IMG/VR virus record: IMGVR_UViG_2713896799_000019
DNA: 14,514 bases
Source: a virus
Lineage: Duplodnaviria > Heunggongvirae > Uroviricota > Caudoviricetes
Strand: one strand, 5' to 3'
The number at the start of each line of letters is the position of its first letter. Position 1 is the stretch's first letter. Under the pieces are notes generated by a model. The model searched no databases and was not told the DNA's origin. It saw nothing but the letters and a program-made list of their open reading frames with translations. Below, piece by piece: positions 421-9,608 of this stretch. The position numbers and the translations under genes are program-made.

Positions 421-854
421 ATTTTGCCCTCAGACTGGCGCGTGAGATGGGGAGGCCTGACTGGCGCGCCATGCTTGCCGGGATGACATCCACCGAATAT
501 GCCGACTGGCACCCCGTTTTTACCGCACGCATTATTTTCAGGATACCCAGCTGGATATGCATTTTTTCCGGGCTGATGTACGCCGTACTCAGCCTGTTTT
601 TTTGCGATCCGGATATGCATCCGGCGGATTTCAGTCTGCTTGCACCCCGACGTGATGATGAGCAGACGGAGATGCCGGATGAGGACGATATGCTGATGCG
701 GAAAGCGGCAGGACTTTCTGGTGGTGTCCGCTTTGGGGCTGACGGGAAGGAAATCGTTACGGTCAGTGATGACATGCGGAGCAGTACAGAGGATGAAGCC
801 ATGCTGATGATGGTGTCTGAGGGAATTCCAGGAGGTGTACGCTATGGCGGGTAA
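396..854 (+). CDS. T: Tail assembly protein T, expressed only as a G-T fusion through the -1 frameshift; it has no independent start
   Basis: The -1 frame translation (REMGRPDWRAMLAGMTSTEYADWH...VLSLFFCDPDMHPADFSLL...KAAGLSGGVRFGADGKEIV...MVSEGIPGGVRYGG) matches lambda gpT. Stop TAA at 852-854. Confidence 0.85.
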   Translation, partial: GKVFDGELNFALRLAREMGRPDWRAMLAGMTSTEYADWHPVFTARIIFRIPSWICIFSGLMYAVLSLFFCDPDMHPADFSLLAPRRDDEQTEMPDEDDMLMRKAAGLSGGVRFGADGKEIVTVSDDMRSSTEDEAMLMMVSEGIPGGVRYGG

Positions 855-3456
855 TTTTGCCGATCTGACAGCTGTTCTTACACTGGATTCAACCCGTTTT
901 TCTGAAGAGGCTGCACGGGTAAAGAAAGAACTGGGTGAAACCAGTGACCTTGCGGATTTGATGGCCGGGCGTGTCAGCCAGTCTTTTAAGAAACAGGCCA
1001 CTGCCGTTGAACAGGGCCTGAGCCGTCAGGCGCTGGCTGCACAAAAAGCCGGGATTTCCGTCGGGCAGTATAAAGCGGCCATGCGTACCCTGCCTGCACA
1101 GTTTACGGATATCGCCACGCAGCTTGCCGGTGGTCAGAATCCCTGGCTTATTCTGCTGCAACAGGGCGGTCAGGTGAAGGACGCCTTCGGCGGGATGCTC
1201 CCCATGTTCAGGGGGCTTGCCGGTGCGATCACCCTGCCGATGGTCGGGGTCACCTCGCTGGCGGTGGCGACAGGTGCGCTGGCGTATGCCTGGTACCAGG
1301 GGGATTCCACGCTTTCAGCGTTTAATAAAACCCTGGTTCTTTCCGGTAATCAGTCCGGACTGACTGCCGATCGCATGCTGACGCTCTCCAGAGCCGGACA
1401 GGCAGCAGGGCTGACGTTTAACCAGGCGAGTGAGTCACTGGCAGCCCTGGTGAATGCCGGTGTGCGTGGTGGTGAGCAGTTTGATGCCATCAACCAGAGT
1501 GTGGCGCGTTTTGCTTCTGTATCCGGTGTGGAAGTGGACAAGGTTGCAGAGGCTTTTGGAAAGCTGACCACCGACCCGACGTCGGGACTGATGGCTATGG
1601 CGCGCCAGTTCCGTAACGTGACGGCAGAGCAGATTGCGTATGTTGCGCAGCTGCAGCGTTCGGGTGATGAGGCAGGGGCCTTACAGGCGGCGAACGATAT
1701 CGCCACAAAAGGCTTTGATGAGCAGACCCGTCGCCTGAAAGAAAACATGGGGACGCTGGAAACCTGGGCGGATAAAACCGGGAAGGCATTCAAATTGATG
1801 TGGGATGCCATCCTGGATATCGGTCGTCCTGAATCCTCAGCGGATATGCTCGCCAGTGCGCAGAAGGCATTTGATGAGGCGGATAAAAAATGGCAGTGGT
1901 ACCAGAGCCGGAGTCAGCGCCGGGGAAAGACCTCCTCTTTCCGTGCCAACCTTCAGGGTGCATGGGATGACCGTGAAAATGCCCGTCTGGGGCTGGCGGC
2001 AGCCACGCTGCAGTCGGATATGGAAAAAGCCGGTGAACTGGTGGCAAGGGACCGGGCTGAGCGTGAGGCGTCACAGCTGAAGTATACCGGAGAGGCGCAG
2101 AAGGCGTATGAGCGCCTGCTGACGCCACTGGAGAAATATACTGACCGGCAGGAAGAGCTGAATAATGCCCTGAAAGACGGGAAAATCCTGCAGGCGGATT
2201 ACAACACGCTGATGGCGGCGGCGAAAAAGGATTATGAATCGACGCTGAAAAAACCGAAGTCGTCAGGTGTCAAAGTGTCAGCCGGGGAGCGTCAGGAAGA
2301 CCGGGCGCATGCAGCCCTGCTGACGCTTCAGGCAGAACTCCGGACGCTGGAGAAGCATGCCGGAGCGAATGAGAAAATCAGCCAGCAGCGCCGGGATTTG
2401 TGGAAGGCGGAGAGTCAGTTCGCGGTACTGGAGGAGGCGGCGCAACGTCGCCAGCTGTCTGTACAGGAGAAATCCCTGCTGGCGCATAAAGACGAGACGC
2501 TGGAGTACAAACGCCAGCTGGCTGCACTTGGTGACAAGGTTACGTATCAGGGGCGCCTGAACACGCTGGCGCAGCAGGCGGATAAATTCGCACAGCAGCA
2601 ACGGGCAAAACGAGCGGCTATTGATGCGAAAAGCCGGGGGCTGACTGACCGGCAGGCAGAACGGGAAGCCACAGAACAGCGCCTGAAGGAACAGTATGGC
2701 GATAATCCTCTGGCGCTGAATAACGTCATGTCAGAGCAGAAAAAGACCTGGGCGGCTGAAGACCAGCTTCGCGGGAGCTGGATGGCAGGCCTCAGGTCCG
2801 GCTGGAGCGAGTGGAAAGAGAGCGCCACGGACAGTATGTCGCAGGTAAAAAGTGCAGCCACGCAGACCTTTGACGGTATTGCACAGAATATGGCGGCGAT
2901 GCTGACCGGCAGTGAACAGAACTGGCGCAGCTTCACCCGTTCCGTGCTGTCCATGATGACAGAAATTCTGCTTAAGCAGGCAATGGTGGGGATTGTCGGG
3001 AGTATCGGCAGCGCCATTGGCGGGGCTGTTGGTGGCGGCGCATCAGCATCAGGCGGTACAGCCATTCAGGCCGCTGCGGCGAAATTCCATTTTGCGACCG
3101 GGGGATTTACGGGAACCGGCGGCAAATATGAGCCAGCGGGGATTGTTCACCGTGGTGAATTTGTCTTCACGAAGGAGGCAACCAGCCGGATTGGCGTGGG
3201 AAATCTCTACCGGCTGATGCGCGGCTATGCGGAAGGTGGTTATGTGGGCGGTGCCGGAAGTCCGGCGCAGATGCGGCGGGCGGAAGGCATTAATTTTAAT
3301 CAGAACAATCACGTGGTGATTCAGAACGACGGTACGAATGGTCTGCCAGGTCCACAGATGATGAAGGCAGTGTATGACATGGCCCGCAAGGGTGCCCGTG
3401 ATGAAATTCAGGCACAGATGCGCGATGGTGGTCTGTTCTCCGGAGGTGGACGATGA
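844..3456 (+). CDS. H: Tail tape measure protein H
   Basis: About 870 aa, with long stretches identical to lambda gpH as remembered (QALAAQKAGISVGQYKAAMRTLPAQFTDIATQLAGG, ...KYEPAGIVHRGEFVFTKEATSRIGVGNLYRLMRGYA, ...DGGLFSGGGR). ATG at 844 follows AGGAGG at 829-834. The GTG at 835 listed in the ORF track is less likely. Confidence 0.95.
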   Translation: MAGNFADLTAVLTLDSTRFSEEAARVKKELGETSDLADLMAGRVSQSFKKQATAVEQGLSRQALAAQKAGISVGQYKAAMRTLPAQFTDIATQLAGGQNPWLILLQQGGQVKDAFGGMLPMFRGLAGAITLPMVGVTSLAVATGALAYAWYQGDSTLSAFNKTLVLSGNQSGLTADRMLTLSRAGQAAGLTFNQASESLAALVNAGVRGGEQFDAINQSVARFASVSGVEVDKVAEAFGKLTTDPTSGLMAMARQFRNVTAEQIAYVAQLQRSGDEAGALQAANDIATKGFDEQTRRLKENMGTLETWADKTGKAFKLMWDAILDIGRPESSADMLASAQKAFDEADKKWQWYQSRSQRRGKTSSFRANLQGAWDDRENARLGLAAATLQSDMEKAGELVARDRAEREASQLKYTGEAQKAYERLLTPLEKYTDRQEELNNALKDGKILQADYNTLMAAAKKDYESTLKKPKSSGVKVSAGERQEDRAHAALLTLQAELRTLEKHAGANEKISQQRRDLWKAESQFAVLEEAAQRRQLSVQEKSLLAHKDETLEYKRQLAALGDKVTYQGRLNTLAQQADKFAQQQRAKRAAIDAKSRGLTDRQAEREATEQRLKEQYGDNPLALNNVMSEQKKTWAAEDQLRGSWMAGLRSGWSEWKESATDSMSQVKSAATQTFDGIAQNMAAMLTGSEQNWRSFTRSVLSMMTEILLKQAMVGIVGSIGSAIGGAVGGGASASGGTAIQAAAAKFHFATGGFTGTGGKYEPAGIVHRGEFVFTKEATSRIGVGNLYRLMRGYAEGGYVGGAGSPAQMRRAEGINFNQNNHVVIQNDGTNGLPGPQMMKAVYDMARKGARDEIQAQMRDGGLFSGGGR

Positions 3457-5863: not shown

Positions 5864-8800
5864 ATGGGTAAAGGCAGCAGTAAGGGGCATACCCCGCGTG
5901 AAGCGAAGGACAACCTGAAGTCCACGCAGTTACTGAGTGTGATTGATGCCATCAGCGAAGGGCCGATTGAAGGTCCGGTGGATGGATTAAAAAGCGTGCT
6001 GCTGAACAGTACGCCGGTGCTGGACACTGAGGGGAATACCAACATCTCCGGTGTCACGGTCGTGTTCCGGGCAGGTGAGCAGGAGCAGGCACCGCCGGAG
6101 GGATTTGAATCCTCCGGTTCCGAGACGGTGCTGGGTACGGAAGTGAAATACGACACGCCGATCACCCGGACCATCACATCTGCAAACATTGACCGATTGC
6201 GCTTTACCTTCGGTGTGCAGGCTCTGGTGGAAACCACTTCAAAGGGGGACCGGAATCCGTCGGAAGTCCGCCTGCTGGTTCAGATTCAGCGTAACGGTGG
6301 CTGGGTGACGGAAAAAGACATCACCATTAAGGGCAAAACCACCTCGCAGTATCTGGCCTCGGTGGTGGTGGATAACCTGCCGCCGCGCCCGTTCAACATC
6401 CGGATGCGCAGGATGACGCCGGACAGCACCACAGACCAGCTGCAGAACAAAACGCTCTGGTCGTCATACACCGAAATCATCGATGTGAAACAGTGCTATC
6501 CGAACACGGCACTGGTCGGCGTGCAGGTGGTTTCGGAGCAGTTCGGCAGCCAGCAGGTGAGTCGTAATTATCATCTTCGCGGGCGTATTCTGCAGGTGCC
6601 GTCGAATTATAACCCGCAGACGCGGCAATACAGCGGTATCTGGGACGGAACGTTTAAACCGGCATACAGCAACAACATGGCCTGGTGTCTGTGGGATATG
6701 CTGACCCATCCGCGCTACGGCATGGGGAAACGTCTTGGTGCGGCGGATGTGGATAAATGGGCGCTGTATGTCATCGGCCAGAATTGCGACCAGTCGGTGC
6801 CGGACGGCTTTGGCGGCACGGAGCCGCGCATCACCTGTAACGCTTACCTGACCACACAGCGTAAGGCGTGGGATGTGCTCAGTGATTTCTGTTCGGCGAT
6901 GCGCTGTATGCCGGTATGGAACGGGCAGACGCTGACGTTCGTGCAGGACAGACCGTCGGATAAGGTGTGGACCTATAACCGCAGTAATGTGGTGATGCCG
7001 GATGATGGCGCGCCATTCCGCTACAGCTTCAGCGCCCTGAAGGACCGCCATAATGCCGTTGAGGTGAACTGGATTGACCCGGATAACGGCTGGGAGACGG
7101 CAACAGAGCTTGTGGAGGACACGCAGGCCATTGCCCGTTACGGTCGTAACGTCACGAAGATGGATGCCTTTGGCTGTACCAGCCGGGGGCAGGCGCACCG
7201 CGCCGGGCTGTGGCTGATTAAAACGGAACTGCTGGAAACGCAGACCGTGGACTTCAGCGTGGGTGCCGAAGGGCTTCGCCATGTACCGGGCGATGTTATT
7301 GAAATCTGTGATGATGACTATGCCGGTATCAGCACCGGTGGTCGTGTGCTGGCGGTGAACAGCCAGACCCGGACGCTGACGCTCGACCGTGAAATCACGC
7401 TGCCATCCTCCGGCACCACGCTGATAAGCCTGGTTGACGGAAATGGCAATCCGGTCAGCGTGGAGGTTCAGTCCGTCACCGACGGCATGAAGGTGAAAGT
7501 GAGCCGTGTTCCTGACGGCGTTGCCGGATACAGCGTGTGGGGGCTGAAGCTGCCGACGCTGCGCCAGCGCCTGTTCCGCTGCGTGAGTATCCGTGAGAAC
7601 GACGACGGCACGTATGCCATCACTGCCGTGCAGCATGTACCGGAAAAAGAAGCCATCGTGGATAACGGGGCGCACTTTGACGGCGACCAGAGCGGCACGG
7701 TGAATGGTGTCACACCGCCAGCGGTGCAGCACCTTACCGCCGAAGTCACCGCAGACAGCGGGGAGTATCAGGTACTGGCCCGCTGGGACACGCCGAAGGT
7801 GGTGAAGGGCGTGAGCTTCATGCTTCGCCTGACCGTAACAGCGGACGACGGCAGTGAGCGGCTGGTCAGCACAGCCCGGACAACGGAAACCACATACCGC
7901 TTCAGACAACTGGCGCTGGGGCGTTATATGCTGACGGTCCGGGCGGTAAATGCCCGGGGGCAGCAGGGTGATCCGGCGTCGGTATCGTTCCGGATTGCGG
8001 CACCGGCAGCGCCTGTCACTATTGAACTGATACCGGGGTATTTTCAGATAACGGCAGTCCCGCGTCTTGCGGTGTATGACCCGACGGTGCAGTTTGAGTT
8101 CTGGTTCTCGGAAAAGCGGATTACGGATATCCGGCAGGTTGAAACCACAGCCCGCTATCTTGGTACGGCGATGTACTGGACAGCTGCCAGTATTAATATC
8201 AGGCCGGGCCATGATTATTACTTTTATATCCGCAGTGTGAACATCGTCGGTAAATCAGCGTTTGTGGAAGCTGTCGGCCGGCCGGTTAATGATGCTGAGG
8301 TGTATCTCAATTTTTTTGAAGGGAAAATAAACAGCACCCTGCTGGGGCAGGAGCTGAACGATCGTATTAATGCCTCGGCATTGCGCAGTGAAGTTGAGCA
8401 ACTGGAGGATGAGATCAATCAGCAGATAGAGAGTGATATTGCTGAAGTGACCCAAAAAATCGGGGAGACAGAAAACAGCCTCACACAGCTGGTTGCGAAA
8501 AAAAATGATGAGCTGTCACTGGGTATATCACAGGTGAGCCAGAGAGTGGATAACGTCAGCAGCGAACTCACGCAGACGGTCAGTCAGAGTAATGAGGAGA
8601 ATGCACGCCAGATAGCGCAGGTTCGCCAGTATGTGGATCAAAAAAGCAGTGAAATCATGACGACAACGGACCAGAAGCTGGGAGATCAGGAGGCCACCAT
8701 CCAGCAGATACAAAAGGTTCAGACGGACACCAGTAATAACCTGAACAGTATGTGGGCCGTGAAACTGCAGCAGATGCAGGATGGTCGCCTTTATATTGCG

Positions 8801-9565
8801 GGTATCGGTGCCGGTATTGAGAACACCCCTGACGGCATGCAGAGTCAGGTGCTGCTGGCGGCAGACAGGATTGCGATGATTAATCCTGCAAATGGCAACA
8901 CAAAACCGATGTTTGTTGGTCAGGGTGATCAGATATTCATGAATGAAGTGTTCCTGAAATATCTGACGGCTCCCACCATTACCAGCGGCGGTAATCCTCC
9001 TGCATTTTCCCTGACACCGGACGGAAAGCTGACCGCTAAAAATGCCGATATCAGCGGTAACGTGAATGCGAACTCCGGGACGCTCAACAACGTCACGATA
9101 AATGAGAACTGTCAGATTAAGGGGAAACTGTCAGCCAATCAGATTGAAGGCGATATTGTCAAAACGGTGGGAAAATCCTTTCCGAGAAATGGCAGTTATG
9201 CCAGCGGTACAATAACGGTCACTGTGTACGATGACCAGGCTTTTGACCGTCAGATAGTAATCCCACCCGTTCTGTTTCGCGGTGGTAAGCATGAAAACTT
9301 TAACAGCAACAACCAACAGTCATACTGGTACTCAACCTGTAAGCTGCAGGTGCTGAAGAACGGACAGGAAATCTTTCAGCAACCCGCGACGGATGTCAGC
9401 AGGGTATTTTCATCTGTCATCGATATGCCTGCCGGACACGGGCATGTCACCCTGACTTTCAATGTTTCTTCATATGGTGCTAATAACTGGACGCCAACGA
9501 CCAGTATCAGCGACCTTCTTGTTGTCGTGATGAAGAAATCAACAGCCGGTATCAGTATCAGCTGA
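5864..9565 (+). CDS. J: Central tail fibre / host specificity protein J, mosaic variant
   Basis: 1233 aa. The first ~810 aa are near-identical to lambda gpJ as remembered ([41 protein letters not shown]...). A longer, coiled-coil-like segment is encoded at about 8340-8750, and the C-terminal part from about 9160 is divergent. Confidence 0.95.
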
Positions 9566-9584
9566 ATTTTATAACCCCAATACG

Positions 9585-9608
9585 GGCGCCAGAAATGGCG
9601 CTTTTTTA
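9585..9608 (+). terminator. Rho-independent terminator-like hairpin with T6 tract downstream of J
   Basis: ggcgcc-agaaat-ggcgc followed by ttttttatt. Confidence 0.55.

Follow-up and report, generated by a model that had tools for sequence, protein, structure and literature searches.

The central tail fibre protein of phage lambda, gpJ, has been solved in several structures (PDB 8iyk, 8xcg-8xck) and mapped into named domains, one of which, the alpha-helical shaft (AHS), refolds upon receptor binding (PMC11101478). At one end of the lambda shaft residues 809-835 form the FNIII-proximal helix, and at the other residues 841-861 become beta-strands on binding (PMC11101478). In phage 21, LamB is the native and sole receptor of the wild type, which does not plate on lamB-deleted cells (PMC11336670 Table 1; bioRxiv 10.1101/2023.04.13.536812). 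The substitution I1025T gives phage 21 the use of OmpC, and additional mutations extend this to OmpF (PMC11336670); the phage 21 stock used in the experiments differs from the GenBank sequence by E1071K. Two further gpJ proteins, A8 and 1A2, are engineered chimeras (Brodel et al. 2024; PDB 9wca, 9wcb).

Here, we describe a gene J (Table 1) encoded in a 14,514-nucleotide stretch of Caudoviricetes DNA (IMG/VR record IMGVR_UViG_2713896799_000019), referred to below as the window. This gene, from an Escherichia coli prophage, was assembled by recombination from three parts that meet at domain borders. Taken as a whole, the explanation that we consider probable is that J is a functional three-module member of the lambda gpJ family with a phage-21-like tip, for which LamB is the most likely receptor. 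The protein is 1233 amino acids long, compared with 1132 in lambda, and contains the Pfam domains FNIII-A_GpJ, Phage-tail_3, Ig_J, Ig_J_second, Phage_Tail_Tip and Ig_GpJ_C. The lambda domain order (PF24801, PF13550, PF24421, PF24489, PF09327, PF12421) is retained, with each match above the Pfam cut-off, as is the order of the gpJ family as a whole: hub, two FNIII/Ig domains, shaft, tail-tip fibre and C-terminal Ig-like receptor-binding domain (RBD). The C-terminal 444 residues match solved gpJ chains with E values of 1.7e-107 (8iyk_J) and 6.2e-109 (8xcj_Z). Open reading frames and the Pfam matches of neighbouring genes place J in a lambda-type tail operon, H-M-L-K-I-J, followed by lom and stf, and the window is collinear with lambda positions 9000-24000.

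Table 1 Features of gene J and its 3' flank (positions are those of the window)
Feature	Positions	Strand	Residues	Basis or property
Gene J, tail-tip/central tail fibre protein	5864..9565	+	1233 aa	ORF list, translation, Pfam
Module 1, hub domains and FNIII-1, lambda/phage 21 lineage	5864..8020	+	1-~719	G+C 0.593
Module 2, FNIII-2, long alpha-helical shaft and central straight fibre	8021..9157	+	~720-1098	G+C ~0.50
Alpha-helical shaft (AHS), ~12 hendecad repeats	8288..8749	+	809-962	Alignment, periodicity, AF2
101 residues without counterpart in lambda J	8369..8671	+	~836-936	Pairwise and multiple alignments
Central straight fibre (beta-prism), ends at I1098	8750..9157	+	963-1098	Pfam Phage_Tail_Tip, aa 945-1073
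Module 3, phage 21-type Ig-like RBD	9158..9562	+	1099-1233	Pfam Ig_GpJ_C, aa 1111-1233
Candidate terminator-like hairpin with T-run, 3' of J	9584..9603	+		Consensus scan, consensus match only

A window taken from a 17-kb draft contig might be suspected of carrying a degenerate prophage or a chimera created during assembly, with J a non-working gene, and some database relatives (P0028 and P0126) do contain exact internal duplications that resemble assembly errors. This suspicion is effectively refuted, however. The J reading frame is uninterrupted, all of its modules are under purifying selection and the identical 1233 amino acid protein is present on at least 24 NCBI contigs. Carriers include three assemblies with contigs of more than 5 Mb, in which the upstream lambda-like tail operon is also 99-100% identical to that of the window.

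The first-pass annotation of this DNA had described J as a mosaic whose first two thirds match lambda, followed by a shaft segment longer than that of lambda and a homologous but strongly diverged C-terminal region. Alignment to lambda J and to prophage J proteins, which it had proposed as a check, bears out all three points. Identity to lambda is about 93-98% over the first ~800 residues (by 100-residue block, 94-99% as far as residue 700 and 87% for residues 701-800), is 81% for residues 1001-1100 and falls to about 43-44% over the last 133 residues. Opposite residues ~836-936 of the window protein the lambda sequence has a gap of 101 residues, the placement of which is ambiguous by a few residues. 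The mosaic with a swapped specificity cassette can now be drawn more sharply, as three modules with located breakpoints. The left breakpoint (~8003-8026) coincides with the border between FNIII-1 and FNIII-2 and the right breakpoint (~9152-9169) with the point where the central straight fibre (CSF) gives way to the RBD. No Chi site is found at either breakpoint, the sole Chi of the window lying at 11840.

Each module has its own set of close relatives. Module 1 is 90-100% identical at the nucleotide level to lambda, phage 21 and PhiR49_2, compared with 54-97% to the J genes of prophages in strains MFDS1022581 and 08-00022. Mismatches to the 08-00022 gene are dense as far as 8020, whereas only four are seen across 8021-8829; for the MFDS1022581 gene, there are two in 8281-9168. 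Other E. coli prophages have a J that is ~99.6% identical to this middle block, with 100% amino acid identity over residues 836-1100. Module 2 comes from a prophage lineage other than that of module 1 and brings with it FNIII-2, a shaft of ~154 residues and the beta-prism fibre. The RBD occupies a patch of ~400 bp, entered at 9152-9169 and left at ~9550-9562, and the right arm around this patch again matches the MFDS1022581 and 08-00022 prophages (98-100%). Because the downstream lom, stf and tfa genes are 98-100% identical to those of the same two prophages, the RBD is an isolated patch, and module 3 was probably inserted as a ~400-bp cassette, the conserved sequences on either side of it being '[14 protein letters not shown]' and '[17 protein letters not shown]'. 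The G+C content along J is 0.593 (5864-8020), 0.496 (8021-9150) and 0.475 (9151-9565). The AT-rich character reported for 8340-8750 is therefore real but is not confined to that segment: the drop begins at the left breakpoint and reaches the end of the gene.

At its ends the shaft can be aligned with lambda AHS residues 809-835 and 840-861, and the extra 101 residues lie exactly between these lambda-type functional ends. Residues 836-962 (127 residues) are rich in glutamine (19), serine (15) and glutamate (14), followed by threonine (11) and asparagine (10), and contain no proline. The segment had been described as heptad-like and Gln/Glu/Ser-rich; the composition stands but the heptad does not, as the hydrophobic periodicity is 3.65 residues rather than 3.5, corresponding to a hendecad (11/3), and none of 2000 shuffled sequences equalled the observed power. 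In an 11-residue frame the hydrophobic core occupies positions 3, 6 and 10, and this pattern is maintained along the shaft. An AF2 model of the C-terminal 444 residues contains a continuous helix from residue 840 to residue 963 with pLDDT 70-80; the model is of a monomer (mean pLDDT 53.9) and is informative for the helix only, pLDDT values below 50 in the CSF being unsurprising when one chain of an intertwined trimer is modelled alone. By analogy with the lambda gpJ structures, the extra residues should form a trimeric, near-straight hendecad coiled coil of parallel helices, which by calculation should add ~15 nm to the central fibre.

No Pfam model covers residues 819-944, no solved structure spanning the long shaft was found in a structure search, and the matches obtained there (polycystin-2, apolipoprotein and a trimeric autotransporter stalk) were weak and composition-driven (E = 0.01-0.5). 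A protein search with the insert alone found 18 short E. coli J fragments and nothing else. A literature search of limited extent gave no published description of a long hendecad shaft. Recent tandem duplication was considered as the source of the extra segment and ruled out: Tandem Repeats Finder detected no DNA tandem repeats within it and the direct repeats are short chance matches only.

The spacer is 49 residues long in lambda, 77 in phage 21 and 150 in the window. These three length classes, without intermediates, account for 149 of 153 relatives from a representative protein search whose output consisted mostly of fragments; two proteins with outlying lengths of 127 and 248 residues carry exact duplications within them and may be assembly artefacts. 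Could the additional length simply be a neutral polymorphism that travels with the module and has no effect on infection? Both lambda and phage 21 use LamB despite their shorter shafts, and the long shaft is found with at least five RBD types, so it is not tied to a single receptor. Nevertheless, the long shaft is under purifying selection (dN/dS 0.12-0.16), no indels separate lineages that have diverged to dS >1, the length classes are discrete and the hendecad core persists throughout. On balance, we regard neutrality as rather unlikely.

The long shaft and the phage-21-type tip are not rare in E. coli. Among 5426 complete genomes, 771 (~14%) encode the long shaft and 1082 the phage-21-type tip at 95% or higher nucleotide identity. 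Phage isolates present a different picture: in 50,697 phage records, 253 of which matched the J query, only PhiR49_2 and PhiR40_1 have the long shaft.

The CSF is 73% identical to that of lambda and 94% identical to that of phage 21. Its last 20 residues before the RBD belong to the A8/MFDS1022581 lineage (E1081, Q1084, K1086), and this end of the fibre is the region in which single substitutions widen receptor use. At the junction, I1098/V1099 of the window correspond to I1025/V1026 of phage 21, the wild-type isoleucine being kept. The RBD beyond it is identical to that of phage 21 J at 131 of 133 residues (~97% at the nucleotide level), the two differences being S1105 (A1032 in phage 21) and I1133 (V1060). 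The window has glutamate at the position of E1071K, and its RBD differs from that of the experimentally tested phage 21 at three residues because the stock carries this change. Identity is 44% to the lambda RBD and 82% to the A8 type (24 differences in 133 residues); this falls short of near-identity to the A8 allele, and the window RBD lies in the same broad clade.

The first-pass annotation took the divergence from lambda as a sign of a receptor other than LamB. The near-identity of the RBD to that of LamB-using phage 21, together with the retained isoleucine, means that this reading is not supported. The phage 21 tip is itself far from that of lambda and yet uses LamB, so that divergence from the lambda RBD does not imply a different receptor. 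By analogy with phage 21, LamB is the most likely receptor, and one or a few mutations would suffice to reach OmpC and OmpF. The nearest prophage relatives have the OmpC-binding A8 tip or one resembling 1A2, and the tip swap in this gene probably went towards LamB.

A competing proposal is that J uses OmpC, alone or with LamB, as a result of joining a phage-21-type RBD to an A8-lineage fibre end at the junction that controls receptor breadth. The A8 RBD is similar to that of the window (82%, as above), A8 delivers DNA via OmpC in ompC-complemented lamB ompC double-deletion cells, and the A8 gpJ-OmpC complex has been solved (PDB 9wcb). The RBDs of A8, phage 21 and the window have one and the same long loop, '[18 protein letters not shown]', the single junction substitution I1025T suffices for OmpC use by phage 21, the fibre end of the window is unlike that of phage 21 at the three CSF positions named above, and S1105 and I1133 are both A8-type states. 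Against this, of the 24 RBD positions that discriminate phage 21 from A8, 22 carry the phage 21 residue in the window, I1098 is the wild-type residue and wild-type phage 21 forms no plaques on lamB-deleted cells. OmpC use is thus unlikely, and LamB is the receptor we favour.

If the trimer works as the solved lambda structures suggest, infection would begin with binding of its RBDs to a trimeric porin, from which a signal would travel up the beta-prism; the shaft would then unlock the FNIII clamp, allowing the tip to open. A ~15-nm coiled coil separating the FNIII clamp from the helix-to-strand switch could alter reach or trigger mechanics, and the tip might reach its porin across O-antigen or capsule. 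If so, this would explain why long shafts are scarce in phages that were isolated with rough laboratory strains as hosts. That long-shaft J proteins make up an uncharacterised functional class of fibre in this sense, and that fusion of the phage-21 RBD to the A8 fibre end has already widened receptor use to LamB plus OmpC, is a combination we think quite doubtful. Lying in the signal-transmitting part of gpJ, the long shaft nevertheless offers a ready natural variant for tests of fibre length, adsorption and tip opening, and is relevant to engineered lambda delivery particles with chimeric gpJ.

With its three known pieces and a tip that most likely still binds LamB, J is an instructive yet ordinary case of phage module shuffling. 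A single gene shows how lambdoid host recognition is rebuilt, with whole structural domains traded at domain borders and a 400-bp receptor-binding tip exchanged alone, inside conserved flanks. A second lesson is not to infer a receptor from divergence from lambda: the phage-21 tip, only 44% identical to that of lambda, shares its porin, whilst the A8 tip, 82% identical to that of the window, binds OmpC.

How, then, does J compare with its known relatives? PhiR49_2 and PhiR40_1 (PV340570 and PV340560; isolated on ECOR13), for which a literature search found no publication, share the 150-residue spacer, but their shafts are only 69% identical to that of the window in amino acid sequence (~77% in nucleotide sequence) and their RBDs, which share 62% identity with the window RBD, fall in the 08-00022 class. 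The prophage J proteins of 08-00022 and MFDS1022581 (WP_047662477.1 and WP_332832659.1) share FNIII-2, shaft and CSF at ~100% identity but differ in the hub region (~72-78%) and in the RBD. In place of the phage 21 RBD of the window, MFDS1022581 has the OmpC-binding A8 type (98.5% nucleotide identity to published A8 despite OCR errors), whilst that of 08-00022 resembles the 1A2 type, a comparison made with OCR-damaged 1A2 text that yields no exact identity. The phage 21 fibre (OL657228, CPT_21_21) shares, besides its RBD and junction, the N-terminal 800 residues (94-98%); unlike the window, it belongs to the 77-residue spacer class, making the window shaft 73 residues longer, differs at seven CSF residues and has no lom gene after J. 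Finally, lambda gpJ shares the gene position between I and lom/stf, the Pfam order, the near-identical first 800 residues, homologous shaft ends, the beta-prism and an Ig-like RBD, but its shaft is 101 residues shorter and roughly heptad (periodicity 3.4) rather than hendecad, its CSF and RBD are the diverged forms described above, and the lower G+C of the 3' third sets the window gene apart.

The window carries a lambda-type tail operon, and its sequence matches a 17-kb draft contig from E. coli (GCA_001264215.1, LFZJ01000009.1) exactly. Its tail-tip protein gene, J, encodes the full gpJ architecture as defined by Pfam, with no Pfam model matching residues 819-944 (see table). Compared with lambda J, the protein is 94-99% identical per 100-residue block to residue 700 and 87% identical at 701-800; residues ~836-936 lie opposite a 101-residue gap in lambda, identity is 81% at 1001-1100 and the last 133 residues are about 43-44% identical. 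The near-identical N-terminal part, the extra segment and the diverged C-terminus described in the first-pass annotation are thus all borne out. The same annotation had noted low G+C at 8340-8750: G+C is indeed low there but the drop is not confined to this stretch, falling from 0.593 (to 8020) to 0.496 at 8021-9150 and 0.475 at 9151-9565. An antisense open frame of 582 codons (6464-8212, minus strand) within the G+C-rich part of J has one end near this drop at the left breakpoint and is most likely a composition artefact.

Coordinates of J, its domains and neighbouring features
Feature	Position	Strand	Remarks
J ORF	5864-9565	+	1233 aa (lambda J, 1132 aa)
FNIII-A	J aa 86-207		Pfam
Phage-tail_3	J aa 330-498		Pfam
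Ig_J	J aa 610-714		Pfam
Ig_J_second	J aa 716-818		Pfam
Phage_Tail_Tip	J aa 945-1073		Pfam
Ig_GpJ_C	J aa 1111-1233		Pfam
Terminator-like hairpins	9584-9603 and 10258-10279		on both sides of lom
ORF with ORF6N domain	13025-13636	-	Pfam; directly after tail-fibre genes

Alignment of J with its counterparts from three E. coli prophages (strains 08-00022 and MFDS1022581 among them) and from phages lambda, 21 and PhiR49_2 resolves three blocks with different best relatives, in agreement with the proposal of a mosaic with a swapped specificity cassette. From 5864 to ~8020, nucleotide identity is 90-100% to lambda, phage 21 and PhiR49_2 but only 54-97% to the 08-00022 and MFDS1022581 genes. There are then only four mismatches to 08-00022 at 8021-8829 and two to MFDS1022581 at 8281-9168, whilst from ~9152-9169 to ~9550-9562 the best match is phage 21 (13 mismatches in about 390 nt; 131 of 133 residues identical), with dense mismatches to both prophages. 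Downstream, lom, stf and a DUF4376 gene are again 98-100% identical to MFDS1022581 and 08-00022; the phage-21-type tip is thus a ~400-bp patch within a right arm of that kind. The breakpoints coincide with domain borders: the left (residue ~720) falls between two FNIII/Ig domains and the right (residue ~1098) where the central straight fibre (CSF) meets the receptor-binding domain (RBD). The 14- and 17-residue flanks of the RBD patch are conserved in all non-lambda types and plausibly serve as homology arms for cassette exchange.

Divergence from lambda had suggested a receptor other than LamB, a reading that is not supported, as the RBD is near-identical to that of a published LamB user, phage 21 (OL657228). 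Plating on double-receptor knock-outs identified LamB as the native and sole receptor of this phage; the single J substitution I1025T, at the trimer axis directly before the RBD, gains OmpC, additional substitutions lead to OmpF use, and the laboratory phage tested has E1071K relative to GenBank (PMC11336670; bioRxiv 10.1101/2023.04.13.536812). Window J has the wild-type isoleucine at the I1025 equivalent (I1098), glutamate at the E1071K position and only two RBD differences from phage 21, S1105 (alanine in phage 21) and I1133 (valine), both of which are the states found in A8, a published OmpC-binding gpJ chimera (complex, PDB 9wcb). The MFDS1022581 tip is 98.5% identical to A8 at the nucleotide level, the A8 text containing OCR noise, and that of 08-00022 and PhiR49_2 looks like the OmpC-binding type of a second chimera, 1A2, as read from an OCR-damaged published sequence. 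The nearest relatives of the middle block (second FNIII domain, shaft and CSF) thus seem to carry OmpC-type tips, and the window phage has probably exchanged such a tip for one of the LamB type found in phage 21. The 20 CSF residues adjoining the RBD belong to the A8 lineage (E1081, Q1084, K1086) and to a part of J in which destabilising changes make receptor use broader. LamB is the probable receptor; OmpC or dual use is a good deal less probable and anything else very unlikely.

Q, S and E, as first described, and also T and N abound in the extra segment, which lacks proline. It is not heptad-like, however: its hydrophobic periodicity is 3.65 residues (11/3), at a power reached by none of 2000 shuffles, and with residues 830-962 arranged 11 to a row, hydrophobic residues align at three positions over about 12 rows. 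The periodicity of the shorter lambda segment, in contrast, peaks at 3.4. In lambda gpJ, the alpha-helical shaft (AHS, residues 809-861) lies below the second FNIII domain and flips about 180 degrees upon LamB binding, residues 841-861 becoming beta-strands as the FNIII clamp is released and the tip opens (Ge and Wang, PMC11101478). Both AHS ends are conserved in window J (809-835 corresponding to lambda 809-835, and 941-962 to lambda 840-861), and the 101 extra residues separate them, placed where the two functional sub-segments meet. An AF2 monomer model has one continuous helix at 840-963 (pLDDT 70-80), the beta-prism being unmodelled, as expected of a monomer. At about 0.15 nm per residue, the insert would add roughly 15 nm. 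Repeat searches ruled out a recent duplication. The segment is under purifying selection: comparison with JNE23-011 gives a dN/dS of 0.12 and comparison with PhiR49_2 one of 0.16, and no shaft indel separates the compared J lineages even at dS of about 1.3.

The spacer from the FNIII-2 end to the prism start was measured in 153 relatives carrying both anchors. Its lengths fall in discrete classes of 49 residues (lambda class, 15 proteins), 77 (phage 21 class, 100) and 150 (window J class, 34), counts that mirror hit sampling rather than natural frequencies. The four outliers comprise a mis-anchored fragment, a distant protein and two proteins, with spacers of 127 and 248 residues, that have exact internal duplications. 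Conservation and quantised lengths together argue that the extra length matters; reach through O-antigen or capsule, side-fibre matching and altered trigger energetics are candidate roles. At least five kinds of RBD accompany the long shaft (those of phage 21, A8, 08-00022 and JNE23 type, plus an unrelated tip in library relative P0130), indicating that shaft and tip reassort independently. Another library relative, the J fragment P0126 (248-residue spacer), has a non-Ig C-terminus and a shaft with one exact 31-residue and one diverged ~50-residue duplication; if real, it means that shafts can grow by block duplication, though it may be an assembly artefact.

Among 5426 complete E. coli genomes, the phage-21-type RBD is present in 1082 (nucleotide identity at least 95%). 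The long shaft insert is found in 32 by megablast (18 at 99% or above) and in 771 by blastn, mainly as a ~77%-identical lineage; blastn against 50,697 phage records gave two matches, PhiR40_1 and PhiR49_2. No full-length megablast match to the combination (8100-9565) exceeds 92.9% in these genomes, and a contig look-up places the exact 1233-residue protein on at least 24 public contigs.

Mosaicism extends well beyond J within the tail operon, since identity to the MFDS1022581 prophage switches between ~100% and ~75% along successive segments of the tape-measure ORF (835-3456; 873 residues from a GTG start, 870 in the NCBI call, 853 in lambda). The stf gene (10290-12386) is also a mosaic: identity to MFDS1022581 is 97-100% except for a ~87% stretch at about 10916-11065, whereas identity to 08-00022 falls to 61-85% over the distal part of the gene (about 11666-12400). 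The 3' half of the DUF4376 gene (12386-12988) is 99-100% identical to 08-00022 and only 54-76% to MFDS1022581, and the stf/DUF4376 region constitutes a second, independent specificity cassette adjoining J. In two other genomes with an identical J (L008, 14765-21719; L009, 14765-21717), stf is disrupted by IS21-family and IS66-family elements whilst J and lom are intact. The flanking terminator-like hairpins, and the absence of lom from the position after J in phage 21, fit lom being a self-contained moron; the ORF6N-domain ORF is a candidate moron or regulatory gene. GGGAAAG (396-402), the slippery heptamer of the lambda G/GT -1 frameshift, occurs close to where the G-like ORF (10-420) ends and shortly ahead of the T-like ORF (447-854), a placement consistent with a conserved programmed frameshift.

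We propose that a J trimer would close the tail tip, with three Ig-like RBDs displayed on a fibre that combines a beta-prism with a hendecad shaft of three helices, and that porin binding, most likely to LamB, would trigger a lambda-like shaft-unlocking sequence. The long hendecad shaft class is the only feature for which we found no description in the literature; the parts of window J are otherwise of known kinds, common among E. coli prophages.
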